A stretch of DNA of 64,000 nt. Source: Minisyncoccota bacterium (GTDB lineage Bacteria > Patescibacteriota > Minisyncoccia > Phycocordibacterales > UBA9973). Shown one piece after another: positions 2,967-59,930 of the stretch. The translations under genes and the position numbers were made by a program. Each line of letters starts with the position of its first letter. Within the stretch, counting starts at the first letter, position 1. The stretch spans positions 4,020 through 68,019 of the forward strand of contig DAOQAL010000001.1 of NCBI GenBank assembly GCA_035353995.1, written 5' to 3'. The notes beneath the pieces were generated by a model. The model searched no databases. It was not told the origin of the DNA and saw only the letters and a program-made list of their open reading frames with translations.

Positions 2967-4601
2967 TTATATTGCATCAAATTCTAAGAAGAAAGTTGAT
3001 CCTTTACCCTTGCCTTCGGACTCTACCCAAACCTTTCCATTGTGTGCTTGGACTACCAATTTTACAGAATAAAGACCATAACCGGTACTATTTACATTCA
3101 TTTTTACAGAATTTTTACCTCTACCACCTTCTGTGAACAAATTCTTTTTATCTCCAGGCACAATACCTACTCCTGTATCTTTAACAAAGAAAACTATTTT
3201 ATTTGTAGATGTAGTAATTTCTTTTTCTAAGTCAATCTTTATCTTTCCGGATGCTGTATAGTTTATTGCATTGTCTATGAGGTTTGATATTACTTCTTTC
3301 ATCCAAAAAGCGTCGCCTTTAATTAAATATTTTTCATCTTGAAAATTTGTTTCAAGCTCAAGACCTTTATTTTGTATAATATCTTTTTTTTCACTAATAA
3401 CATTTAGCGCTATATCTTTTAGATCAATCATTTTCATTTCAAATTGAACAATACCCTTTTGTAAATTTGAAGCATTTAAAATCAAATCAACTGTCCTGAT
3501 TCCAAGGTTGTCTGATTCAAGACCTTTTTCTGATATTTTTTTAAGTTCTGGAGAAATAGTGCCAAAACTTCCCTGTAATATTTCTGAGAAAATATATTTT
3601 GTATGAGTAAAAGAACCTTTTACTTTATGATTGATAAGATGCATTAAACTTTCTTTTTGTTGAATCAACTTTTCCAAATCTTTATTTAATTTTTCAATTT
3701 GTATTCTTTGATCAGACTCTTTTTTTAAGTTTTTGAATAGAAGAAATGATAAAATAACAGAAAATGATACTGTCAAAATAGTTAAAAATTGATCAGTTGG
3801 ATTTGAGACAAAAATTAATTGAATACCAGTCAAAATCAAAAGTCCAATAACAAAGAAATACGTACTAATAAGTTTTAAATTGAAAATATCCAATGTAAAA
3901 ATTGAATAAGTAGTAGCAATTAAAAATATCGGAATTATAAATAGAGCATACAAATTTGTATCATAATTACCAGAGTAAGAAGCCAAGTATTCTGTTATAC
4001 CAAAAGTTGCCAAAAACAAAAACATTGAACCGATCATAGCTATTGCTGTTTTTTTAGTATAATCTATTTTTTTCTGAATAAATGGACGAACAATATAAAG
4101 AAACATAATTGAAACAATAAAAATTTCTAAAACTAATTTATAAATATCAAGAAAATTATTGTTATAGACTTCGCATAGGGCATGATCAAAACCTAAAACT
4201 GATTTTTGCATCACCGTTATAATTAATGGTGGCAAACTGGCTGCAAAAATAGCTATTTTTTGCCAAAGAAGTAAATCCTTTTTTTTAATAAAAAGAAGAA
4301 TAAAATAAAAACCAAGCAAATAAAATAAAATCTCAAAATATACTAAAAGAGACCAAGTTGTATAAACAATAAAATAATTATTGGAAACCCAAGCAAATAA
4401 ATCACCTATTAACCAAAGCGAAAATACAATTGTAAAAGAAAAGAATGCTCCTGCCAAAGTTCTTCCTTTTGATTTTAAAAATACTAAAAGTCCCAAAAAG
4501 ATACTGAAAAATACTGGAACTAAATGAGAATAATATATTAAATTACTATTTATAAAATCAGCCTGAGATGCAAGTATACATGTGTTAAATATTGTATTCA
4601 T
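2967..4601 (-). CDS. Membrane sensor histidine kinase (orphan, no response regulator nearby)
   Basis: About 290 aa of N-terminal polytopic membrane segments, a coiled-coil/DHp region with a candidate phosphoacceptor His (LMHLINHKVKG), then an HATPase_c domain with N box NLIDNAINYT, G1 VKDTGVGI and G2 GYGLYSVK. Confidence 0.75.
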   Translation of the reverse strand: MNTIFNTCILASQADFINSNLIYYSHLVPVFFSIFLGLLVFLKSKGRTLAGAFFSFTIVFSLWLIGDLFAWVSNNYFIVYTTWSLLVYFEILFYLLGFYFILLFIKKKDLLLWQKIAIFAASLPPLIITVMQKSVLGFDHALCEVYNNNFLDIYKLVLEIFIVSIMFLYIVRPFIQKKIDYTKKTAIAMIGSMFLFLATFGITEYLASYSGNYDTNLYALFIIPIFLIATTYSIFTLDIFNLKLISTYFFVIGLLILTGIQLIFVSNPTDQFLTILTVSFSVILSFLLFKNLKKESDQRIQIEKLNKDLEKLIQQKESLMHLINHKVKGSFTHTKYIFSEILQGSFGTISPELKKISEKGLESDNLGIRTVDLILNASNLQKGIVQFEMKMIDLKDIALNVISEKKDIIQNKGLELETNFQDEKYLIKGDAFWMKEVISNLIDNAINYTASGKIKIDLEKEITTSTNKIVFFVKDTGVGIVPGDKKNLFTEGGRGKNSVKMNVNSTGYGLYSVKLVVQAHNGKVWVESEGKGKGSTFFLEFDAI

Positions 4602-5419
4602 TTTTTTAATTGATTATGGATAATTTCTTCACCAACTTTCTCATCATAAAAATTCCAAATTACTTCTTCTTCTGCATCCATAGGCGGAATAGGAACGATC
4701 AAAGGTTTTAATCCGGTAAGATTATAAACTTCTTCCAAAGAAGGTAATAATATTTCCTTAGCAAAAACTGCGTCCCTGCCAGACAGTAAAAAGTTTTCAA
4801 AAAGAATTCCGTGACAAGTATATAATAACATTTCTTTTTTATAATATTGTTTTGCTTCTCCACCATTTCTTTTTAGCCACTCTGAAGCATCATAAAAAAT
4901 CATATTAGGACTTTTACATTTAGATATATCAAATAGTCTTTTATGAAAAGATGTTAATGATTCACCCCATTTAGTTAAAACATTTTTTAAAGAGTTCCCA
5001 TCATATTTTTTGAAATCTACTACATTTATTTTGCGATACTGGCTTTCTCCATTTTTACTTATACCTTTATCTAAATGAATTACTCCAAGTGAATGCTTGA
5101 ATGAATTGTTAGAAGTAAATTTATCATCTAAGTACTCCGAAAAAATTGGAATTAAACCAAAATCTTCAGTAATTCTTAAAAACCATTTAGTATCAAAATT
5201 TGGTGTTGCAACTTGCTTAGTACTAATACCATATTTGCCAAGTTTTTTTAATGGCTCTGGAATATCTCCATTCAATAAATCTTCAATTTTTTTTACTAAT
5301 TTTTTATCTTTTTGTCTTTCTTCTAAGGTTTTTATTGCAACAGAAAGTTGAGTATATACTGTTCCGTTAAAGAGATCTCGATTGGATATTATTTTATTAT
5401 AATCCCATTTTTCTTCCAT
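4598..5419 (-). CDS. Hypothetical protein, translationally coupled (ATGA overlap) to the histidine kinase
   Basis: A 273-aa ORF that is long for this AT-rich background. Its stop overlaps the kinase start by 4 bp. No family recognised from the sequence. Confidence 0.45.
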   Translation of the reverse strand: MEEKWDYNKIISNRDLFNGTVYTQLSVAIKTLEERQKDKKLVKKIEDLLNGDIPEPLKKLGKYGISTKQVATPNFDTKWFLRITEDFGLIPIFSEYLDDKFTSNNSFKHSLGVIHLDKGISKNGESQYRKINVVDFKKYDGNSLKNVLTKWGESLTSFHKRLFDISKCKSPNMIFYDASEWLKRNGGEAKQYYKKEMLLYTCHGILFENFLLSGRDAVFAKEILLPSLEEVYNLTGLKPLIVPIPPMDAEEEVIWNFYDEKVGEEIIHNQLKK

Positions 5420-5828: not shown

Positions 5829-6749
5829 TCACAAAAATAATATCAAACTTCCAAATATCATAATTAATATTGCTATAAGTTTTGGAATTAAAATACGTTT
5901 TGAAAGATTTTCTTTTGCTATTTTTGGTAAGAATTTAGTACAAAAAATAGTTAAACAAAGAACTATAGCTGGCTGAAAACTCTCAACTAGAAAAACCATT
6001 GTTACAGGAACAAGAAGAAGAGCAAAGTTAGCCAAAAGATTTCCTGAAACTGTAAGAATTTCGCTTCCCACATTAAGGAAAAAAATCTTTATACCACCTT
6101 TACTATTCATATGCATAAATTCTCTGCGATATTTTGGAATAAATATAAAAATAAATAAACCAGTAATACCAAGACCAAAATATTCCCAAAAAGAAGATAC
6201 CCAAAAATTACCATCTATTGTTACAAATTTAAAAATAACACCAGATATTGCTATTATAAGACAACAAAAAATCATATATAAAATGGGCTTTATTTTGACT
6301 TTTTTGCCTATGCCAGAAAAATTTATAGAAAGTATTACCAATCCAAAAATAATAATTATTGAACCCAAAATTTGATTTAATGTTAATGTTTCTCCTAGAC
6401 AAAAATATCCCAATATATAACCAAAAATAGGCACAGCTAAAAACCAAGGAACAACTGAGGATGTTTCTTCTATCTCAAGAGTAAATAAATAAAAAATAAC
6501 CCATACAATTGTCAAAATACCAGTAATAAATAATAAAATTATATCTAAAATTGGTATATCAAAAATATTATTAACAAAAATACTAATAACAGTAGCGATA
6601 AAAAGACCTATCAAACTTGAAAAAAGCACTAGACCACCAGAGCTTCGCTCTTTTTCTTTTTCTGAAAAATTAGATACTAAATAATTATCGACAATATTTA
6701 CTATGGCCCATAAAAATGTAGCAATAAAAGAAATAAGAAACCATTTCAT
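5829..6749 (-). CDS. EamA/DMT-family permease (10-TM, two EamA-like halves)
   Basis: A 306-aa polytopic membrane protein with internal duplication typical of the drug/metabolite transporter superfamily. Confidence 0.55.
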   Translation of the reverse strand: MKWFLISFIATFLWAIVNIVDNYLVSNFSEKEKERSSGGLVLFSSLIGLFIATVISIFVNNIFDIPILDIILLFITGILTIVWVIFYLFTLEIEETSSVVPWFLAVPIFGYILGYFCLGETLTLNQILGSIIIIFGLVILSINFSGIGKKVKIKPILYMIFCCLIIAISGVIFKFVTIDGNFWVSSFWEYFGLGITGLFIFIFIPKYRREFMHMNSKGGIKIFFLNVGSEILTVSGNLLANFALLLVPVTMVFLVESFQPAIVLCLTIFCTKFLPKIAKENLSKRILIPKLIAILIMIFGSLILFL

Positions 6750-6785
6750 AAAAATATTATAACTTAAATAGCATTAAATAAGAAA

Positions 6786-7628
6786 TTATATTCCAAAAAG
6801 TTTTTTTGCATTTTTAACTATGCTTTCTGCAACTTCATCTTCCGGTAAATTTTTTATTTCTGCTATTTTCTTCACAATCTCTCGCACGTAAACTGGTTCG
6901 TTTCGTTTTCCTCTGTATGGCACTGGCGCAACGTATGGAGAATCAGTATCTGTAAGAATAAATTCGAGTGGAGTTTCCCTAATTACGCTTTCATAGTCTG
7001 CAATTTTTAAATTTGGTTTATATGTAACCGGCCCTGCAAAAGATATATACACACCCATTTCTACAAATCTTTTCATATCTTCGACAGTACCTGCAAAAAA
7101 ATGAGACACAGCTCCAACCGTAGCATATTTTTTCAAAAGTTCAGCAACGTCAGCATAAGCATTCTTATCTTCTTCCCCATTTCGGATATGAAGCATAAGA
7201 GGTTTACCAACTTCGTTTGCAAGTTTAATTTGCTCAATAAAAGTTTCTTTCTGTTTTTCTAATAAATCTTTTTTAAGATGAAAATAATCCAGTCCACATT
7301 CTCCTATCGCTACAACTTTTGGATCTTTTGCCATTTCTAAATATTTTTCATAATTAAATTCTTCTTTGCGTGTCATAAAACCACCACCTTCTTCTTCGGC
7401 TTCGTCATGATAAGTTTCTTCTAGCTGAATTGGATGGAGACCTATGCAAGCGTAAACTCCTTCCGTATATTTATGCGCAATATCTATTGCCCGAAGCGAA
7501 GTGCTTTCTTGACTACCTACGTTAAAAAGCCACGTGTCAGCATCAAGTGCTCGTTTTATTACTGCGTCACTATCTTCTGCGAAGGCTTTGAAATTTATAT
7601 GGCAATGTATATCAATGTATTTTGGCAT
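6786..7628 (-). CDS. tatD: TatD-family metal-dependent hydrolase/DNase
   Basis: Carries DIHCHINF (the His pair of the TIM-barrel metal site), IGECGLDY, MLHIRN and DTDSPYVAP motifs characteristic of TatD/YcfH. Confidence 0.85.
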   Translation of the reverse strand: MPKYIDIHCHINFKAFAEDSDAVIKRALDADTWLFNVGSQESTSLRAIDIAHKYTEGVYACIGLHPIQLEETYHDEAEEEGGGFMTRKEEFNYEKYLEMAKDPKVVAIGECGLDYFHLKKDLLEKQKETFIEQIKLANEVGKPLMLHIRNGEEDKNAYADVAELLKKYATVGAVSHFFAGTVEDMKRFVEMGVYISFAGPVTYKPNLKIADYESVIRETPLEFILTDTDSPYVAPVPYRGKRNEPVYVREIVKKIAEIKNLPEDEVAESIVKNAKKLFGI

Positions 7629-7711
7629 AAAAATATAATAACATTTGTTTTGAGAAAATAAAAAAAGCCAGCCCTATATTATTTACACAGGGTAGTCCTG
7701 TGTAAATTTTA

Positions 7712-9157
7712 TTATTTTCGTAAAAATAAAGGTGCTTCGGGTTTTTTGTTTTCGCGGATTAGCTTTTGAATTTTTTGTGAAGTTTCTGGAAGCATTGGCT
7801 CTATGGCAAGAGAAGCTTTATATAAATGCAAAAGTAAATAATGAACATCTTTTTCTGCCCCTTTCTTGTCTACTTTTATTTTTTTGAATGGTTCGTTTTT
7901 TTGTATGTATTGATCAAGAGCACCAAGGCATTCCCAAATCCAATTTATGAATTTATTAATATCATACTTTTCTAAACTTTCTTTTTTTTCAGCAAAATAA
8001 TCAATTTTCATTTCTTCTTCATTTAGTTTTACGCCATAATTTACTGCCATAGTCATAATCCTACTTACTAAATTCCCCAAGCCATTAGCTAAACCTGCAT
8101 TGTAAGCATCTTTAAAACGTTCTATGGTAAATGGACTGTCTTCAAAACTAGAAACTTCCCGCAAAAGGAAATACCGAAGCGCATCCGTGCCATATTCGCT
8201 CACTATATCTCTTGGATCTACAATGTTGCCCAATGTCTTTGACATTCGCACTCCACCATCCCCTGTAATAAAGCCATTTACGATTATTTGATGCGAATTA
8301 GGTAAACCCGCAGAAAAGAGCATTACTTGCCACATAGCACCCTGAAAACGCGTATTATCCTTTCCACAGTACTGTGTAGGAGTGCCATTTTTCCAGTATT
8401 TTTCAAAATTTTCAGAATTTTTTGGCCATCCCAATGTAGAAATATAATTTACTAATGCGTCAAACCAAACATACATTACTTGTGTATCATCCCCTGGTAC
8501 AGGTATACCCCAAGGCATTTTTTCTTTTAATCTTGAAATAGAAAAATCTTGCAAACCATTTTTTACAAAATTTTTAATTTCATTAAAACGAAATTCAGGA
8601 ACAATAAAATTTGGGTTTTCCTCATAAAATTTTAAAAGTTTATCTGTAAAAGCTGAGTATTTGAAAAAATAATTCTCTTCATTTATTATTTTTAATTTCA
8701 TACCTGGATGACAAGGACATTCACCATTCACTAATTCAGAATCTGTCTTTTCACTTTCACAACCTGCACAATATTTTGCTTCATAATTTTTTTTGTAAAT
8801 AAAATTATTATCATATACTAACTTCCAAAAACTCTGTGCTGCATATTGATGATCAGCACTTGTTGTTCTTACAAAATGTATATCTTCACTTACGCCAAAT
8901 ATTTTGAGTTGTTCTTTAAAAGTTTCAAAACCTTGATCAACAAAATCTTGTACAGAAATTTTTTTCTCAGTTGCTTTTTCGTAAATTTTTATTCCATGCT
9001 CATCTGAACCAGTATTAAAATAAACATCAAAACCTTGAAGTTTTTTCAATCTTGCTATTGTGTCAGCACGCACAAATTCCAATGCATGCCCCATATGCAG
9101 AGGAGCATTTACGTAAGGAAGTGTTGTTGTAATATAAAAACTTTTTTTATTATTCAT
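7712..9157 (-). CDS. metG: Methionyl-tRNA synthetase (likely start at MNNKKSF; the ORF track extends 13 codons further)
   Basis: Class I HIGH motif (LHMGHALE), KMSKS variant (RMSKTLGN) and a Zn knuckle (CAGCESE...CPCHPG). Shaped like MetRS, with no C-terminal tRNA-binding extension. Confidence 0.85.
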   Translation of the reverse strand: MNNKKSFYITTTLPYVNAPLHMGHALEFVRADTIARLKKLQGFDVYFNTGSDEHGIKIYEKATEKKISVQDFVDQGFETFKEQLKIFGVSEDIHFVRTTSADHQYAAQSFWKLVYDNNFIYKKNYEAKYCAGCESEKTDSELVNGECPCHPGMKLKIINEENYFFKYSAFTDKLLKFYEENPNFIVPEFRFNEIKNFVKNGLQDFSISRLKEKMPWGIPVPGDDTQVMYVWFDALVNYISTLGWPKNSENFEKYWKNGTPTQYCGKDNTRFQGAMWQVMLFSAGLPNSHQIIVNGFITGDGGVRMSKTLGNIVDPRDIVSEYGTDALRYFLLREVSSFEDSPFTIERFKDAYNAGLANGLGNLVSRIMTMAVNYGVKLNEEEMKIDYFAEKKESLEKYDINKFINWIWECLGALDQYIQKNEPFKKIKVDKKGAEKDVHYLLLHLYKASLAIEPMLPETSQKIQKLIRENKKPEAPLFLRK

Positions 9158-10265: not shown

Positions 10266-11534
10266 TTAAAATTTTAATATTTTTGAGAATTTGTCCTTTT
10301 CTTTAAATGGACCAATGAGAGCTAAATTTAATTTTTCATCTTTAAATATCTCATTTGCCATTTTTTTTATTTCTTTTGAAGTAACTTTTCTTATTTCTTT
10401 TGCTTTTTCTTCTGCGTTTTTAATTTCTTTTTTAAGAAGTTCTTGTCCACCGTAAAAATTTGCTATATCATCGCTTGATTCGAGAGATAGTTTCATATTT
10501 CCTATCAAACATTCTTTTACTTTATTTAATTCTTCTTCTGAAACTAATTCGGTTTTTAATTTTTTACATTCATCAATAACAGCTTGTATAACTTCTTCGA
10601 TTCTTTTATTGTCTACACCAGCAGAAATTTCAAAAAATCCATGATCAGTATAAACATCATCATAAGCACGAACATAGTAGCCTACTCCCATTTCTTCGCG
10701 CAATTTTTGAAAAAGTCTTGAACTCATTCCTCCACCCAAAACTCCACCCAAAACAGATAATGCAATATTTTTTTTATTAAATAAATCATAAGTGCGAACA
10801 CCAAGAACAAAATGTGTTTGATCGGTATCTTTGAATTTTAATAATGTTTCAGGTGCAGATTGTTGTTCTTTTACTTTTTCTTTTTTAGCTTTTTTACCAC
10901 GAGAAATTTTACCAAATATTTTATTTGCTTCTTTTATAACTTCTTTTTGAGAAAGCTTACCTGCAACAACTAAAACAGTAGCTTCTGGTAGATAGTGAGC
11001 TTTTTTATATTTTACAAAATTTTCTCTTTTCATTTTCAAAATATTTTCTTTCTCTCCTGCAATATTCCAGCCAGCTGGTTGATCTCCGTATAAAAGTTTC
11101 ATAAAAAGATCTTGCACGTGTCTATTTGGCAAATCTTCATACATATTTATTTCTTCAATAATTACTCCTTTTTCTTTTTCAATTTCGGCTTCTGGAAAAG
11201 TAGAATTTAAATAAATGTCAGATACTATATCAAAAATTTTCTTAAAATGTTTAGCGTCAGATTTTGCATAATATCCTGTATATTCTTGTGCTGTAAAAGC
11301 ATTATATTGAGAACCAATAGCATCTAATTCTTTTGAAATATCTATTGCTTTTGGTCTTTTTATTGTCCCCTTGAAACACATGTGCTCAAGAAAATGTGAA
11401 ATACCATTATTATTTTTTTCTTCATATTTAGAACCAGCTTCTACTAACATCAAAACAGTAACCGTTGGATTATCTTTCATCGGCACTGTTATAACTTTCA
11501 AACCATTTTTTAAAACTTTTTTTGTATATTTCAT
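10266..11534 (-). CDS. M16-family zinc metallopeptidase (insulinase/pitrilysin-like)
   Basis: Inverted zincin motif HFLEHM (HxxEH) near the N-terminus, 422 aa, two-lobe M16 size. Confidence 0.8.
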   Translation of the reverse strand: MKYTKKVLKNGLKVITVPMKDNPTVTVLMLVEAGSKYEEKNNNGISHFLEHMCFKGTIKRPKAIDISKELDAIGSQYNAFTAQEYTGYYAKSDAKHFKKIFDIVSDIYLNSTFPEAEIEKEKGVIIEEINMYEDLPNRHVQDLFMKLLYGDQPAGWNIAGEKENILKMKRENFVKYKKAHYLPEATVLVVAGKLSQKEVIKEANKIFGKISRGKKAKKEKVKEQQSAPETLLKFKDTDQTHFVLGVRTYDLFNKKNIALSVLGGVLGGGMSSRLFQKLREEMGVGYYVRAYDDVYTDHGFFEISAGVDNKRIEEVIQAVIDECKKLKTELVSEEELNKVKECLIGNMKLSLESSDDIANFYGGQELLKKEIKNAEEKAKEIRKVTSKEIKKMANEIFKDEKLNLALIGPFKEKDKFSKILKF

Positions 11535-11680
11535 TTGTTTATTCTAATACATTTACAATATATCCTTATATTTATCTAAAAAAACTTTTTAAAGTGTTTA
11601 ATAAAATCAAAATCTTTTTGCATATATTTAATATTAGCACAAAACATTATCTAAAATCTAAACTCCCCAATTAAACAAAA

Positions 11681-11705
11681 TTAAGCAAGGACGGTCCTTG
11701 CTTAA
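11681..11705. repeat. Perfect 25-nt palindrome TTAAGCAAGGACGGTCCTTGCTTAA (REP-like), immediately downstream of the transposase gene
   Basis: 12-bp arms around a single central G. A second copy lies on the other side of the gene at 12409-12432. Confidence 0.7.
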
Positions 11706-11711
11706 TTTTGC

Positions 11712-12380
11712 TTAATTTGTAAAATAATCTTCAACAAAATCTTTAAAGGATGAAACGCCTCCGAAATAATCTGGAAAGTTTTGCGGTTCTATTATATTCT
11801 TCTCTGCCCTTTCAACTTCTAAATAATCTTGATAACTGGAATACCTATAAGATTTTAAAAACTTTTTTATCTCAACGGATGGCTTTTTTATTTGCTTCTT
11901 CCATTCTGGAAATTTTATTTCTAAAGGATTTATATGAATGTATCCAAATAATTGTCTCATATAATTATCATCAAATCCAATTAATTTTGATTTAAATAAT
12001 CCTCCAAATAAAGCCCCCGATCTTTGATATTTAATATTAAAAAACATAGCATAACTAGTCCCAAGTTTTTTCATAAACCTAGTTATTCCACCATCAACTT
12101 CTTGTCTAACCAATAGATGAAAGTGATTACTCATCAAACACCATGCACCAATAGAAACTAATGGCTCACCTTTATCCAAAACTAAAACTTCATCAAGGGT
12201 TTTATGTTGCTGATTTATTAAATTATCAAGGCGAAAAGATCCTTTTTGCGTGTTGGAAATATATAAAAGCATAATAAATCGTTCGTAATCTCTATTTGAT
12301 TTAAAAATTACTCTTTTATCTATTCCACGATTGTAAATATGATAATACTCCCCTGTCACGAATGGATCTTTTCTAAGCAT
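11712..12380 (-). CDS. IS200/IS605-type Y1 (HUH) transposase, RAYT-like
   Basis: Y1_Tnp signatures: N-terminal YHIYNRGIDKRVIF, the HUH motif in WCLMSNHFHLLV, and catalytic Tyr candidates downstream (YIHINP...). It is flanked on both sides by the same palindrome. Confidence 0.75.
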   Translation of the reverse strand: MLRKDPFVTGEYYHIYNRGIDKRVIFKSNRDYERFIMLLYISNTQKGSFRLDNLINQQHKTLDEVLVLDKGEPLVSIGAWCLMSNHFHLLVRQEVDGGITRFMKKLGTSYAMFFNIKYQRSGALFGGLFKSKLIGFDDNYMRQLFGYIHINPLEIKFPEWKKQIKKPSVEIKKFLKSYRYSSYQDYLEVERAEKNIIEPQNFPDYFGGVSSFKDFVEDYFTN

Positions 12381-12408
12381 CTATAGATTATAGTAAATGA
12401 ACAACACA

Positions 12409-12446
12409 TTAAGCAAGGACGGTCCTTGCTTACGGTCCTTGCTTAA
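12409..12446. repeat. Second copy of the REP-like palindrome with a tandemly duplicated right arm (TTAAGCAAGGACGGTCCTTGCTTA + CGGTCCTTGCTTAA)
   Basis: Same 24/25 nt as the copy at 11681-11705, followed by an extra CGGTCCTTGCTTAA half-site. Confidence 0.7.
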
Positions 12447-12448
12447 TT

Positions 12449-13774
12449 TTATGAAATTTCTTTTTTTATGAAATCAATAAGATTTGCAACCTTAACTCTC
12501 TCTTGTTTAGCAGTATCCCTATCGCGAACTGTCACTGCATCATCTTTTAGGGTATCAAAATCAACCACTATACAAAATGGTGTGCCTATTTCATCTTGTC
12601 GGCGATAACGTTTTCCAATATTGCCATTATCATCCCAAATTACTCGTCCAAATTCTTCTTTTAGTGGGGCAAAAACTTTTGTATTTGCGTATTCAACAAG
12701 TTCAGTTTTGTTTTTAAGAAGTGGAGAAACTGCACAAATTATTGGAGCTATACTTGGTTTAAATTTTAAATATGCTCTTATTTCTCCATCTTTTTCATCT
12801 TCTGCATAAGAAGAAAGTAAAAGTGCAAGAATTGCTCTATCAACACCAAATGTAGGTTCAATAACATGTGGAGTTATTTTTCCTTCACCTTCTTCATCTA
12901 CAAATTCAAGACCGTGGTTTTTCAAATCAAAATCAGTTCTATAAGCAAGACCGAAAAGTTCTTTTTGTCCAAAAGGATATTCAAATTCAAAATCAACTGT
13001 TCTACTTGAATAATGTGCTCTATCCCCTTCCTCTATTTCTACTTCATGAATTTTATTCATATCAATACCAACTTCTTCAATCCATTCAAGCATTTCTCCT
13101 TTCCAATATTCAAAATATTTTTCCCAATCTTCTTTTCTTGTGAAATATTCTATTTCCATCTGTTCAAATTCTCGAACTCTAAAAATAAAATCACGCGGAG
13201 TTATTTCATTTCTAAATGCTTTACCTATTTGAGCAATACCAAATGGAAGTTTAGGATGAAAAGCATCAACTGTATTTTTAAAATTAACAAAAATACCTTG
13301 TGCTGTTTCTGGACGGAGATATGAAATTGCAGAAGAATCTTCAGAAGCACCAATTTTAGTTTCAAACATCATATTGAATTTTTTTATTTCACCTAATTTA
13401 TTGCCACATTTAGGACATTTTTTAGGATCATCAATTTGATCTGCCCGAAATTTTTTATTGCACTTTTTACACTCAACCATTGGATCAGCAAAATTTTCAA
13501 CATGCCCAGCTTTTTGCCATACTTCTTGTCGCATTAATATAGAAGCATCAATTCCATACATATCTCTACGAGAATCTACAAATTTTTTCCACCAAGAATT
13601 TTTTACATTATTTTTAAGAGCGACGCCAAAATGTCCCCAGTCATATATACCTCCAAGTCCACCATAAATTTCTGAACCAGGAAAAATAAAACCACGTCTC
13701 TTGCAAAGAGATACTATTTTTTCCATCAAATCATTATCAATTTTTTCTTTTTTATCCATAATTATTTTATTCAA
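12449..13774 (-). CDS. glyQS: Glycyl-tRNA synthetase, dimeric alpha2 type
   Basis: N-terminal KRRGFIFPGSEIYGGLGGIYDWGHFG is the GlyRS hallmark. Class II motifs follow, with an inserted Zn-ribbon CKKCNKKF...CPKCGNK. Confidence 0.85.
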   Translation of the reverse strand: MNKIIMDKKEKIDNDLMEKIVSLCKRRGFIFPGSEIYGGLGGIYDWGHFGVALKNNVKNSWWKKFVDSRRDMYGIDASILMRQEVWQKAGHVENFADPMVECKKCNKKFRADQIDDPKKCPKCGNKLGEIKKFNMMFETKIGASEDSSAISYLRPETAQGIFVNFKNTVDAFHPKLPFGIAQIGKAFRNEITPRDFIFRVREFEQMEIEYFTRKEDWEKYFEYWKGEMLEWIEEVGIDMNKIHEVEIEEGDRAHYSSRTVDFEFEYPFGQKELFGLAYRTDFDLKNHGLEFVDEEGEGKITPHVIEPTFGVDRAILALLLSSYAEDEKDGEIRAYLKFKPSIAPIICAVSPLLKNKTELVEYANTKVFAPLKEEFGRVIWDDNGNIGKRYRRQDEIGTPFCIVVDFDTLKDDAVTVRDRDTAKQERVKVANLIDFIKKEIS

Positions 13775-38935: not shown

Positions 38936-38953
38936 ATTCTTATTATAACAAAA

Positions 38954-38978
38954 AATTCCCCTTCTGGGGAATTTTTTG
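38954..38978 (-). terminator. Terminator hairpin between the CARDB-protein gene and pilB
   Basis: AATTCCCC-TTCT-GGGGAATT palindrome with T/A runs on both sides. Confidence 0.45.
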
Positions 38979-38996
38979 TTATCTATAAAATAAATT

Positions 38997-46988: not shown

Positions 46989-47009
46989 TAATTAATTAGA
47001 CCAAATAAA

Positions 47010-47036
47010 AACCCCGCAAAACGGGGTTTTTATTTT
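47010..47036 (+). terminator. Intrinsic terminator after hppA
   Basis: AAAACCCCG-CAAAA-CGGGGTTTTTATTTTT. Confidence 0.6.
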
Positions 47037-48145: not shown

Positions 48146-48157
48146 TAGTTCAAACAA

Positions 48158-48186
48158 AAAACCCCGATTGCTCGGGGTTTTTTGTT
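48158..48186 (+). terminator. Intrinsic terminator
   Basis: AAAAAACCCCG-ATTGCT-CGGGGTTTTTTGTTTTT. Confidence 0.6.
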
Positions 48187-48243
48187 TTTATGTAAAAAAA
48201 AATTATATTTGAAAATAAACTATTTTTAGTATAAGATTTAAAA

Positions 48244-52942: not shown

Positions 52943-52973
52943 TCTTTTATCTCGAGATAAAAGAACGATAATC

Positions 52974-53004
52974 AAAAATCCCCTTTAAAGGGGATTTTTG
53001 TTTT
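52974..53004. terminator. Bidirectional terminator between hup and lexA
   Basis: AAAAATCCCC-TTTAAA-GGGGATTTTT. Confidence 0.55.
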
Positions 53005-57063: not shown

Positions 57064-59175
57064 TTAATTTTTCTTAAAAAAGTCCTTGTCTGCGGCTTTT
57101 ATAGAAAGACCAATTTTATCATTCTCAGAATCAACTTTTATTACTTTTACAGGCACGATCATTCCTTCTTTCATTATATCTCTAACTTGCTCAACTCGGA
57201 ATGGTGCAATTTCAGAAATGTGAACTAAGCCATCTGTAAAATCATTTAATCTAACGAATGCTCCAAACTCTGCAATCCTAACAACTTCTCCTTTTAGAAT
57301 TTCTCCAACTTTAAATTCATGAGTCATTTCTTCAACAATTTTTTTGGCTTTTTCTGCTGAATCTCCTTTCCCTGTAAAGTATACTGTTCCATCATCTTCA
57401 ATTGTTATTTCAGCTCCAGATTTTTCTTTAATTTCTTTAATTGTTTTTCCACCTGAACCAATAACTAAACCAATTTTGTCTGGATTAATTTTTGTTGTTA
57501 GAATTTTTGGTGCATTAGGAGAAATTTCTGCACGTGGTTTTGAAATTTCTTTTTCTATTGTATCCAAAATAGATAATCTTGCTTTTTTAGATTGAATCAT
57601 TGCTTCTCCTAATATTTTTACTGGCACTCCTTCAACTTTTACATCAAGCTGAATTGCAGTTATACCTTCCCTAGTTCCAGCAACTTTAAAATCCATATCA
57701 CCATGATGATCTTCTGGTCCTTGTATGTCCGTTAAAACCTTATATTTATTATCATTTTCGTACATCAAGCCCATAGCAATTCCAGCGACAGGAGCTTTTA
57801 TTGGTACTCCTCCATCCATAAGTGCTAATGTTGAAGCACAAATAGAAGCCTGAGAAGTAGAACCATTTGATGCCATAGATTCAGAAACGATTCTAATCGT
57901 ATATGGAAATTCATCCACTTCTGGCAATATCATTGCAATTGCTTTTTCTGCTAATGCGCCATGTCCAATTTCTCTACGATTTGTGCTTCCCATTCTTCCA
58001 ACTTCTCCAGCTGAATATGGTGGAAAATTATAGTGATGCATAAATCTTTTTTCTGTTTTTGTTTCCATGCTATCTATTAAATTTTTATCTTCAGGACCAC
58101 CAAGAGTTAGTACAGAAAGAACGTGCGTTCCACCTCTATAGAAAATTCCTGAACCATGCAAAATACTAGAAATACCTCCAGCTTGTGCATACAATTCACG
58201 AAGTCCATCCATTGCTCTTCCATCTGGACGTTTATTTTCATTAATTGCTTTTTCATGAATCATTCTATTCTCTGTGCTATCAAATAAATCATCTTCTGTA
58301 GAAAAATCTTCTCTGTCTGGATAAGTGTCTTCTACTAATTTATTCCAAATATTATGCAACTCATCAATTTTCTTTTTTCCTGGACCTGAAAAAATAGCTT
58401 CTTCCATTTTTGGCAAAATATTTTCATTAAAAAGCTTTACTGATTCTGGTACGATTTCTGCCTTTTCGATAACTCTTTTTTCTTTTCCAATTTCTTTTGC
58501 AATATTTTTTTGGAAATTTTCTAATTTAGCTATCTCTTCTGTTGCAAATAGTAATGCTTTTTCTATTTCATCTTCTTTTGTCTGATGAGCAGATGCTTCA
58601 ATCATATTTATATTTCCATCTTTTCCACAAACAGTAAGATCAAATTTATATTTATTATCTTCTTCTCGTAAGCTTTGAGGAGGATTAATAACTAAATTAT
58701 CACTATCGTATTTACCAACACGAACACATCCTACAGGACCTGCCCATGGAATATTTGAAACTAAAAGCGCAAGAGATGCTGCATTAACTGCAAGTATTGT
58801 AGGATCATTATCATCAACAGACAAAACTGTTACTATTATTTGTACTGCATGACGCATTGATTGATCAAAAAGAGGTCTTAATGTTCTATCGATTACGCGA
58901 CTTGCTAAAATAGCGTCTTCTGATGGCCTGCCTTCTCTACGAGTAAATCTTGAACCTAAAATTTTTCCTGCTGCGTAAAACTTTTCAGCATAATCAACGG
59001 TTAGGTTGAAAAAACCAAGGCCTTGTTGCTTATCATGAGACATACATGCTGTTGCAAGCACTATTGTCTCGCCATATTTAAGCATCACAGATCCGTGTGC
59101 TTGTTCTGTTAAATTAGAGAAAACAGCAGTTAGCGTTTTCCCTCCAATTTCTACACTATATTCTTTCTTTTCCAT
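57064..59175 (-). CDS. pnp: Polyribonucleotide nucleotidyltransferase (PNPase)
   Basis: Two RNase PH domains, KH (GLVIGSGGKTIKEIKE) and S1 (GEILKGEVVRIAEFGAFV) domains. 703 aa. Confidence 0.9.
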   Translation of the reverse strand: MEKKEYSVEIGGKTLTAVFSNLTEQAHGSVMLKYGETIVLATACMSHDKQQGLGFFNLTVDYAEKFYAAGKILGSRFTRREGRPSEDAILASRVIDRTLRPLFDQSMRHAVQIIVTVLSVDDNDPTILAVNAASLALLVSNIPWAGPVGCVRVGKYDSDNLVINPPQSLREEDNKYKFDLTVCGKDGNINMIEASAHQTKEDEIEKALLFATEEIAKLENFQKNIAKEIGKEKRVIEKAEIVPESVKLFNENILPKMEEAIFSGPGKKKIDELHNIWNKLVEDTYPDREDFSTEDDLFDSTENRMIHEKAINENKRPDGRAMDGLRELYAQAGGISSILHGSGIFYRGGTHVLSVLTLGGPEDKNLIDSMETKTEKRFMHHYNFPPYSAGEVGRMGSTNRREIGHGALAEKAIAMILPEVDEFPYTIRIVSESMASNGSTSQASICASTLALMDGGVPIKAPVAGIAMGLMYENDNKYKVLTDIQGPEDHHGDMDFKVAGTREGITAIQLDVKVEGVPVKILGEAMIQSKKARLSILDTIEKEISKPRAEISPNAPKILTTKINPDKIGLVIGSGGKTIKEIKEKSGAEITIEDDGTVYFTGKGDSAEKAKKIVEEMTHEFKVGEILKGEVVRIAEFGAFVRLNDFTDGLVHISEIAPFRVEQVRDIMKEGMIVPVKVIKVDSENDKIGLSIKAADKDFFKKN

Positions 59176-59374
59176 ATTTTTTTACCCACCCACAAGGCGA
59201 GTTTCAGTTTACCTTCAGACTGTAATATTGTTCTCTACCTTATCTCTTAAAAGAAATCAGGTGAACACTACTATCTGTCTAAAGGCAAACTTATTAACTA
59301 ATAAATACTAGGCTTATAGTAGCATTTTAAAGGTAAAATGCAAAAGAAAAACTATTATATCTTTGATAAATCAA

Positions 59375-59410
59375 AGAGCCCCTATGCAAGCTAGCTTGCA
59401 TAGGGGCTCT
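59375..59410 (-). terminator. Perfect 16-bp-arm palindrome hairpin between the NYN gene and pnp
   Basis: AGAGCCCCTATGCAAGC-TAGC-TTGCATAGGGGCTCT. This could be a terminator or an RNase III-type processing stem in the rpsO-pnp leader. Confidence 0.45.
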
Positions 59411-59423
59411 TGTAAGCTAGGTT

Positions 59424-59930
59424 TTATTTAACTCCCATTAAATATTTCTTTGGATTTTCAGACATATCTATGAAATCATCTGCTGTTTCGCGAAGTTTTG
59501 CGGAAGTAGATTTTCCAAAAGACATGACTTCAACTTGAGTCATTGTTTCTAAGTATTGTACAAGTGGTACAAAGTCACCATCACCTGAAACTATTACGAT
59601 AGTGTCTAGCCTTGGTGCTGTTTTAATAGCATCAACGGCAAGACCAACGTCCCAATCTCCTTTTTTTGTTCCTGTATGAAAAATCTGTAAATCTTTTGTC
59701 TTGGTTTCAATTCCAAGCTTAGTAAGCGCTTCAAAAAAATGTTTTTCATCACCTGCTTCTGTCCTAATGACATAAGCTACTGCATGCACTAATTTTCTTC
59801 CAGCTACTGCTTCTTTCAAAACAGCACCGAAATTAACTCTTGCTTTATATAAATTTCGAGCGGAATGATATAAATTTTGTGTATCTATAAAAACTCCAAC
59901 TCTTTGTTCTTTGTGTTTAATTACTGTCAT
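59424..59930 (-). CDS. NYN-domain (LabA/PIN-like) protein
   Basis: VFIDTQNLYHSAR...DVGLAVDAI...IVIVSGDGDFVPLV is the NYN/LabA acidic-residue pattern. Confidence 0.75.
   Translation of the reverse strand: MTVIKHKEQRVGVFIDTQNLYHSARNLYKARVNFGAVLKEAVAGRKLVHAVAYVIRTEAGDEKHFFEALTKLGIETKTKDLQIFHTGTKKGDWDVGLAVDAIKTAPRLDTIVIVSGDGDFVPLVQYLETMTQVEVMSFGKSTSAKLRETADDFIDMSENPKKYLMGVK

Follow-up and report, generated by a model that had tools for sequence, protein, structure and literature searches.

Between the genes glyQS and M16 peptidase of a Minisyncoccota bacterium, a gene for a transposase-like protein of the HUH/Y1 type stands between two copies of one perfect palindrome. The locus lies in a stretch of 64,000 nt (assembly GCA_035353995.1, contig DAOQAL010000001.1, positions 4,020 to 68,019), which was analyzed as a whole and is called the window below. 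The question is whether the locus is an insertion sequence, a domesticated host gene with regulatory hairpins, or a member of the known partnership between repetitive extragenic palindromic (REP) sequences and their transposases (REP-associated tyrosine transposases, RAYTs). An initial annotation from the sequence alone had proposed a REPtron-like unit, i.e., a RAYT between its cognate REP hairpins, with IS200 ends as the other comparison. We consider it probable that the locus is a REPtron/TIRtron-type unit of Patescibacteria, in which a class-2 Y1 gene is bracketed by its cognate 25-nt palindrome within a 914-nt insertion. The most fitting description is that of a lineage within the TnpA-REP/TIRYT world that belongs to Patescibacteria, REPtron-like in its working and outside strict RAYT/REP membership. 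As such, it is a new lineage of the known partnership between REP hairpin and transposase and not unprecedented.

The unit and its empty site

The open reading frame (ORF) of the Y1 gene (11712-12380, minus strand, ATG start) encodes a 222-aa protein with YHIYNRG and WCLMSNHFHLLV, identified from profiles, motifs and a structure model as an HUH/Y1 single-strand DNA endonuclease/transposase. The 25-mer TTAAGCAAGGACGGTCCTTGCTTAA is a palindrome of 12+1+12, an arrangement which leaves its central base unpairable. It was found at 11681-11705 without mismatch and again at 12409-12433 with a single one (the last base, C). Thus, the ORF and both 25-mers named in the initial annotation are present, and 100 dinucleotide-preserving shuffles of the window (31% G+C) gave 0.00 expected matches to TTAAGCAAGGACGGTCCTTGCTTAA. 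On the 3' side of the gene, an A-run and a T-run extend the stem around the core at 11681-11705 to a perfect 17 bp (CAAAA...TTTTG, 11676-11710), which is terminator-like on both strands. A partial arm copy, TTGCTTAA, stands at 11708-11715 (minus strand TTAAGCAA), and the TAA within it is the Y1 stop codon (11714-11712), a detail missing from the initial annotation. The palindrome on the 5' side, TTAAGCAAGGAC-G-GTCCTTGCTTA (12409-12446), starts 2 nt past the glyQS stop codon. The duplicated half arm reported for this copy was found to be an exact 13-nt tandem repeat of CGGTCCTTGCTTA (3' arm and loop; 12420-12432 and 12433-12445). Single-stranded DNA folding compared with shuffles gave z-scores of -8.8 and -9.6 for the left copy and of -6.8 and -4.9 for the right copy. 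Half-site searches of the window found no copies or half-site pairs besides the two flanking ones, and Rfam in E-value mode returned only sub-threshold noise for 11000-13000.

All genes of the locus are on the minus strand, in the order glyQS (12449-13774), Y1 unit and M16 peptidase gene (10266-11534). The proteins of the window are identical to those of the Candidatus Paceibacterota metagenome-assembled genome (MAG) GCA_964524305.1 (421-kb contig). In the closest relative found (L125/L126, with a GlyRS 86% identical), glyQS and M16 are 1 nt apart (...TAA-t-ATG...), and the window therefore has 914 extra bases (11535-12448), made up of the hairpins, the gene and a 146-nt spacer. This empty site contains no hairpin. 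The comparison of the locus between relatives, which the initial annotation had suggested, thus shows that the relatives do not have the gene at this position. The same junction is occupied by a PQ-loop gene in a third relative (L127) and by other genes in L123, and is therefore a variable spot. Neither glyQS nor M16 was found near any other Y1 locus examined, and the neighbors of the Y1 homologues differ in every genome, with MurJ/ABC transporter, L10, cupredoxin, KsgA, BipA and PurH among them. The protein variants P0001, P0064 and P0047 occurred in 11 to 24+ contigs each, always in one context and with identical flanks. Polymorphism of flanks or arm arrays between samples, sought as a sign of ongoing activity, was not found for six protein variants. 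Overall, the Y1 gene acts as a single-copy gene which is stable over short time scales and moves over long ones.

The AT-rich spacer of 146 nt (11535-11680) between the downstream palindrome and the M16 start codon is part of the insertion; it has no homology to the flanks of other units, and the relative L125 is without any spacer. A TAGAAT box stands in it 6 nt upstream of the M16 ATG, and the spacer presumably supplies the start signal for the M16 gene, now severed from glyQS.

Several observations concern neighborhoods of related loci. In L137, two different Y1 paralogues (3001-3675, plus strand, and 4566-5231, minus strand), 0.9 kb apart and each with its own palindrome type, flank ksgA (RrnaAD), and L087, which belongs to the window's clade, also adjoins ksgA. 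L016 and L140, from different subfamilies, are both upstream of rplJ. In L123, whose GlyRS is 86% identical, the mini-palindromes AAGGACAGTCCTT and AAAGGACTGTCCTTT (4953-4990) just upstream of glyQS have the apex of the window palindrome and different outer arms. Elsewhere in the window, classical bidirectional terminators (A-run, C/G-rich stem, T-run) are found at 1603-1636, 38945-38982, 47003-47035, 48152-48187 and 52973-53000; every one has a different sequence, and they form the background against which the repeated palindrome is to be seen. A 38-nt GC-rich perfect palindrome, AAGAGCCCCTATGCAAGCTAGCTTGCATAGGGGCTCTT (59374-59411), with a 19-bp stem and without loop or T-run, separates a 168-aa gene (59424-59930, minus strand) from a 703-aa PNPase-like gene (57064-59175; label from reading the translation) and has no second copy in the window.

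Recurrence and dispersal of the palindrome

The search core was AAGCAAGGAC-N-GTCCTTGCTT, an exact 21-nt pattern with 20 specified bases and a free central base. It misses variant palindromes, e.g., GCAAGAAC-N-GTTCTTGC, and the genome scan covered species representatives only, the source genome not being among them. Moreover, the metagenome scan missed a contig that carries both palindromes (Ga0116171_10000036, L121), and all copy counts are therefore lower bounds. Matches to the core came from 24 stretches of species-representative genomes and from 95 metagenome stretches, all in or near Patescibacteria; the species-representative MAGs were labeled Nomurabacteria, Paceibacterota or Patescibacteria, with four Saccharibacteria and few others. 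A phage origin was rejected, the core being absent from 2.9 million viral contigs and the protein having just two distant relatives in them.

After deduplication, 117 distinct copies were counted in other Patescibacteria assemblies, and the palindrome is hence not unique to the locus, a point on which the initial annotation had made the REP interpretation depend. Twenty-five copies abut a Y1 gene, 39 are certainly lone (no Y1 gene, with the sequence reaching 1 kb or more to either side), and 53 are too near a contig end to be classed. Two unit-bearing MAGs have five cores (JBBUBB01, the unit and 3-4 lone copies) and six cores (JANNRS01, the unit and 4 lone copies). The 39 lone copies stand between same-direction genes (23), convergent genes (4) or divergent genes (2), or inside long ORFs (10), a placement resembling the distribution described for REPs (PMC3733652). 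They are found near gene 3' ends, and many are without a T-run. An 11-bp stem (T...A feet) with the foot T(T)AAGC is nearly universal among the 117 copies, while the central base varies (T 44, C 30, A 22, G 21).

The copies standing in frame encode KQG[RP]SLL and were found in PIF1-type helicase genes at four loci (L004 4990-5010, L023 333-353, L113 and L049) and in TruB genes at three (L005 6264-6284, L007 4732-4752 and L060 6735-6755). In PIF1, the copy belongs to a 13-aa segment of the linker that precedes the HTH_40 domain, and a 47%-identical homologue is without this segment (one comparison). Two other readings of the dispersed copies were tried and rejected. Doublets of the REPIN type disagree with paired copies that are 35 to >2000 nt apart without a preferred spacing, and DNA uptake sequences disagree with a density of about 1-2 per 100 kb and with the own flanking palindrome of each Y1 subfamily.

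A few arrangements of the palindrome were observed away from Y1 genes or together with a second type. In L082, two arrays of full and partial palindromes with six exact cores (6645-7263 and 8977-9115) bracket a cassette in which an N6/N4 DNA methylase gene (7385-8275) stands beside a 174-aa ORF without annotation (8281-8805); the cassette may be a restriction-modification module. In L070, where no Y1 gene was seen, a palindrome pair (381-401 and 970-990) encloses a gene of the type IV pilin kind (N_methyl motif). In L016, a GCAAGAAC-N-GTTCTTAC palindrome (201-225) stands about 190 nt upstream, in a MAG with a TTAAGCAAGGAC-type unit, so more than one type can coexist in one genome.

Homologues of the Y1 protein have palindromes of their own. 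P0064 (76% identical) is flanked by TCTAGCAAGAAC-N-GTTCTTGCTAGA, the arm being likewise duplicated, and P0047 by TTTCGCAAGGAC-N-GTCCTTGCGAAA. Paralogous Patescibacteria subfamilies have quite different palindromes, among them AAAGGACGGTCCTTT, AGGACCGCCCTCCGTATACGGAGGGCGGTCCT, GTCAAGGcgaaaCCTTGAC, CAAGGTTtAACCTTG and TTACAAAGGACCGCCCTTCG, on both sides of the gene and at the same distances, and lone copies of these palindromes are also nearby (identity is 47-60% between these paralogues and the representative, itself 46% identical, that seeded their search). Altogether, eight palindromes surround eight Y1 genes of different subfamilies, each with its own one and in the same geometry. In nine aligned 25-mers, compensatory double changes were found in 6 of the 12 stem pairs, a count biased upward because the sequences had been pre-selected for at least 10 of 12 pairs; 95% of the cells were paired, and none of 500 shuffles matched. 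Such a pattern of one protein with one repeat is a reported hallmark of TnpA-REP and REPs (PMC6006769).

In all 11 units compared, the loop bases of the two hairpins were either identical (5 units) or complementary (6 units) and never unrelated, a result with a chance of about 5e-4. Hence, within a unit, one flank is a copy of the other, in either orientation. Extra partial arms stand beside about a third of the 117 copies. In the 52 arrays that were parsed, the hairpin foot is the starting point of every partial arm, and the outer flank is often repeated along with it. Their ends fall at a few positions, namely after 8-10 nt, after 18 nt, or 1-2 nt past arm and loop. These partial arms agree with slippage at a stalled hairpin, helped by microhomology of 1-3 nt; they may also come from repeated enzymatic cutting and rejoining.

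The layout of the unit is conserved as well. The same hairpin on both sides of the gene recurs at at least 13 homologous loci and 5 paralogue loci. Thirteen other loci, with homologues 64-78% identical, share the order of hairpin, about 17-18 nt, TATAAT-like box, 6-8 nt and ATG; with the box taken as TAnnnT, this geometry was counted in 12 units besides that of the window and in 5 paralogue units. At the 3' end in those 13 loci, the stop codon is inside or just ahead of the second hairpin, and in five units besides that of the window it is within the full downstream hairpin. Homology between units ends at the hairpins. In the window, the promoter-like segment (12381-12416, minus strand), read from consensus, consists of a -35-like TTGCTT in the hairpin arm (12416-12411), 18 nt, TATAAT (12392-12387), 6 nt and the ATG at 12380. 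This geometry predicts a leaderless or near-leaderless mRNA, for which the upstream hairpin would occupy the -35 position. Beside this common layout, the P0047-type genes were observed to have a downstream palindrome variant without an in-frame stop (L149 3178-3214), which the ORF reads through. This explains the 237-aa P0047 product ending in ...FARTVLAKRKV and the length variants of homologues. The C-terminal tail of P0118 is similar to that of P0047.

The Y1 protein and the competing explanations

The only Pfam match of the protein is Y1_Tnp, with 25.3 bits just above the cutoff of 23, which agrees with the family assignment of the initial annotation. It has the HUH motif N85-H86-F87-H88, a catalytic-type Tyr147 in YIHINP (147-152) and Y-S-S at 180-182. 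Among 21 close homologues the HUH, Tyr147 (Y-x-x-x-N-P) and SS motifs are invariant; over 62 sequences, down to 33% identity, H86, H88, Y147 and S182 never vary and N85, N151 and S181 hardly do. The invariance of the catalytic HUH and Tyr residues argues for a retained nuclease chemistry. A PDB search with the single sequence gave no meaningful match. The top PDB match of the family profile was 4ER8 (E. coli TnpA-REP; E = 0.02, aligned from HUH through YIxxNP). An AlphaFold2 model (predicted local distance difference test 92.6) had 4er8_A as its top Foldseek PDB match (E = 5.4e-6), in comparison with about 1e-3 for the ISDra2, IS608 and IS200 transposases. By profile and model, the predicted fold is hence closest to TnpA-REP and less near to IS200-type TnpA. 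The motif set (NHFH, YIH[IL]NP, Y-S-S, 222 aa) fits TnpAY1 class 2, subclass 2.1 (= Bertels Group 1), a placement judged by motifs against Table 1 of PMC6006769 and not by phylogeny. Pfam detected no C-terminal helix-turn-helix (HTH) or Bac_DnaA_C-like domain. 

More than 1800 close homologues were found, and 15,060 relatives at E <= 1e-3 in a library of 50%-identity representatives, which are not necessarily all from Patescibacteria; at this clustering level, the close clade is one representative (66% identity), and the next ones are at 53% and 46%. Among the best 120 matches, the identity of the Y1 protein is 72-86% and that of GlyRS 79-86%. Moreover, it is more conserved than the ComM-like neighbor (71.6% vs. 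49.7%). Strong constraint or horizontal spread could each explain this conservation. In two paralogue genes, a piece of the palindrome was observed in frame inside the Y1 gene itself, namely the apex in L132 (3161-3185), encoding QKGRSF, and one arm in L140 (about 3165), encoding REGRSF, both between helix A and strand 2; in the window protein, the corresponding residues are KGSF (within TQKGSFRLD, residues 44-52).

On these grounds, mobilization of the hairpins by the Y1 protein is the most likely mechanism, as far as sequence comparison can tell. The protein would recognize the palindrome as a hairpin in single-stranded DNA, e.g., at a replication fork, and cut and rejoin the DNA beside or within it via Tyr147 and the HUH-bound metal. 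Such cutting and rejoining might seed and maintain the lone copies and occasionally shift the Y1 gene itself. The upstream copy is predicted to overlap the -35 region of the Y1 promoter, so that protein binding or hairpin extrusion would auto-regulate the expression, and the downstream copy would give the stop codon region and a terminator-like hairpin.

Several points weigh against a REPtron/TIRtron-type unit. The copy number is low, with 1-6 exact cores per MAG compared to tens to hundreds in canonical REP families, and the source genome shows just the two flanking copies in the 64 kb read. The GT[AG]G guide tetranucleotide is absent at the hairpin foot in the copies examined, and NCBIfam NF047646 (REP_Tyr_transpos, an equivalog model) gave only 26.2 bits against a cutoff of 80. 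The term RAYT of the initial annotation therefore holds for a Y1 HUH enzyme nearest to TnpA-REP and is not established in its strict sense. Some lone copies are kept at orthologous sites in two related MAGs; together with the identical flanks across samples, this means that the activity, if any, is slow. The left copy alone resembles an ordinary bidirectional terminator, common in the window. Finally, the TnpAY1 subclass 2.1, which the motifs fit, had no REP association according to Quentin et al. (PMC6006769).

A rival view is that the gene is fully domesticated and immobile. The palindromes would then be only regulatory, as operator at the promoter and as terminator, and the protein would have no part in making the lone copies, which would be ordinary terminators or binding sites with the motif in common by accident. 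The conserved position of the hairpin over the -35 region and the stop codon speaks for it, as do the conservation of the protein, which is like that of GlyRS and above that of the ComM-like neighbor, and the lone copies near gene 3' ends, some at conserved orthologous sites. The left copy also scores as a bidirectional terminator: the scan listed it on the plus strand, the minus strand likewise has a T-run after the stem, and the right copy qualifies weakly. A terminator role of the hairpins may exist alongside a REP-like one, yet it leaves the shared sequence unaccounted for. An identical 23-25-nt sequence at unrelated places in many genomes is unexpected for independent terminators, and no two of the remaining terminators of the window share a sequence. 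A T-run is missing from many lone copies, ten of the lone copies are inside ORFs, and that in PIF1 falls on a 13-aa insertion relative to the homologue. With the catalytic HUH and Tyr invariant and the unit itself an insertion, we regard an immobile gene with purely regulatory palindromes as quite unlikely. As to a mere chance pair of similar terminators around an unrelated gene, A-run/stem/T-run terminators are plentiful in AT-rich genomes, and the window has several, but the idea is refuted and retains practically no likelihood, for the shuffles expect zero matches, the pairing recurs at at least 13 other loci and the paralogues have pairs of their own.

An autonomous IS200-like insertion sequence is the other candidate, in which only the hairpin-gene-hairpin unit moves and the lone hairpins are excision footprints or unrelated terminators. 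The unit as a whole is indeed an insertion relative to the empty site, its context differs between genomes, Pfam calls Y1_Tnp, and the hairpins mark the limits of homology between units. However, no second or near-identical unit was found in any genome or contig sampled (the genomes being incomplete), and each variant has one stable locus. The Y-x-x-x-N-P and NHFH signatures belong to class 2, as opposed to Y-x-x-x-Q and DH[VI]H of IS200 (Table 1, PMC6006769), and the modeled fold appears nearer to TnpA-REP than to IS200-type transposases. Instead of distinct subterminal hairpins at the left and right ends, both ends are the same perfect palindrome. Lone copies exceed the gene-adjacent ones, and some are in frame within PIF1 and TruB genes. 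An IS200-like element is thus distinctly improbable, and the comparison with IS200 ends in the initial annotation finds no support in the tyrosine/HUH signatures, the fold and the identical perfect palindromes. Its REPtron-like architecture, in turn, is supported by the insertion, the lone copies in related genomes, the cognate palindromes and the TnpA-REP-like fold, and a REPtron/TIRtron-type unit is the reading that we prefer.

A bolder version, which we hold to be unlikely, is that a phylum-wide and vertically retained partnership of Y1 protein and "GGAC-type" palindrome now belongs to the equipment of the host in ultra-small genomes. As a portable module, the palindrome would combine a -35 element and operator at its one side with a stop codon and terminator at its other. 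It would be tolerated in frame in proteins and would bracket cassettes such as those of the DNA methylase and the pilin gene, and the arrays and matched loops would be footprints of cleavage-and-rejoining or of hairpin-primed copying near the apex. To our knowledge, repeat growth by either of these two routes near the apex is undescribed for RAYTs.

Relation to known systems

The Y1 proteins form a large Patescibacteria family whose genes consistently stand next to cognate perfect palindromes. As far as we know, REP/RAYT systems have been studied almost solely in Proteobacteria and a few other cultivated groups, and genomes of Patescibacteria are otherwise thought to be nearly devoid of mobile DNA. 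A literature search for RAYT/REP in Patescibacteria or the Candidate Phyla Radiation found nothing relevant. If the placement in subclass 2.1 (Group 1) holds, REP association reaches a branch thought to be REP-less. The system is also an unusually clean one for biochemistry: the hairpin is perfect and 25 nt long, the model of the 222-aa enzyme is confident, and there are natural variants with compensatory changes and an empty site. For annotation, it matters that such genes are labeled "transposase" and that ORFs can be lengthened by the palindromes or contain them in frame. The Rickettsia palindromic elements are a known case of in-frame insertion into coding genes; in comparison, the insert here is much shorter (about 21-39 nt).

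Many of the single features have been described already, namely REPtrons, TIRtrons with self-complementary repeats, stop-codon-supplying REPs and REPs inside genes (PMC6006769, PMC3733652, PMC5581495). The in-frame copies of the window palindrome in PIF1-type helicase and TruB genes are like the REPs within genes, which are often in replication and repair genes according to Di Nocera et al. (PMC3733652, PMC6006769). With IS200 (IS200/IS605, TnpAY1 subclass 1.1), the locus shares a unit of about 0.75 kb with one Y1 gene and a hairpin at each end, an upstream hairpin that can block read-in transcription, and an insertion between housekeeping genes. It differs in the tyrosine/HUH signatures, in a protein about 70 aa longer (222 vs. 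about 150 aa), in being single-copy, in its ends of identical perfect palindromes and in the dispersed lone hairpins.

The TIRtron/TIRYT of subclass 2.1 (PMC3733652, PMC6006769, PMC5581495) has the same NH[YF]H, Y[IV]HLNP and SS tail in about 220-240 aa. This subclass, with a median length of 238 aa, was equated with TIRYTs and reported to be without REP-like flanks (PMC6006769), whereas every member examined here has them. Low-copy repeat families are common to both; some terminal inverted repeats (TIRs) are wholly self-complementary and form moderately abundant families, and Bertels gives about 12 occurrences of the flanking 16-mers for Group 1 (PMC3733652, PMC6006769, PMC5581495). As opposed to TIRYTs, the window protein has no Pfam-detected C-terminal HTH/DnaA_C-like domain, and TTAAGCAAGGAC-type palindromes stand in its flanks instead of GGGGWSAS.

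The REPtron of E. coli and pseudomonads (TnpA-REP/RAYT with REP/REPIN; 4ER8; PMC3479197, PMC3116915, PMC6006769) differs in several respects. The window system is without the 5' GT[AG]G tag, its stem is a perfect 12+1+12 with no bulge, and it has no doublets of fixed spacing (REPINs). About 1-6 exact cores occur per genome of roughly 1 Mb instead of tens to hundreds, and the palindrome is conserved across many species, while the REPtron repeat is species-specific. The protein of 222 aa has a conserved 70-aa tail and is far below the NCBIfam equivalog cutoff for RAYTs. Nevertheless, both systems have a single-copy Y1 HUH gene between cognate hairpin repeats and gene-less repeats dispersed mostly downstream of genes (here in related genomes). 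They also share an own repeat for each protein subfamily and the Y-x-x-x-N-P motif, and the REPtron enzyme provides the nearest solved fold.

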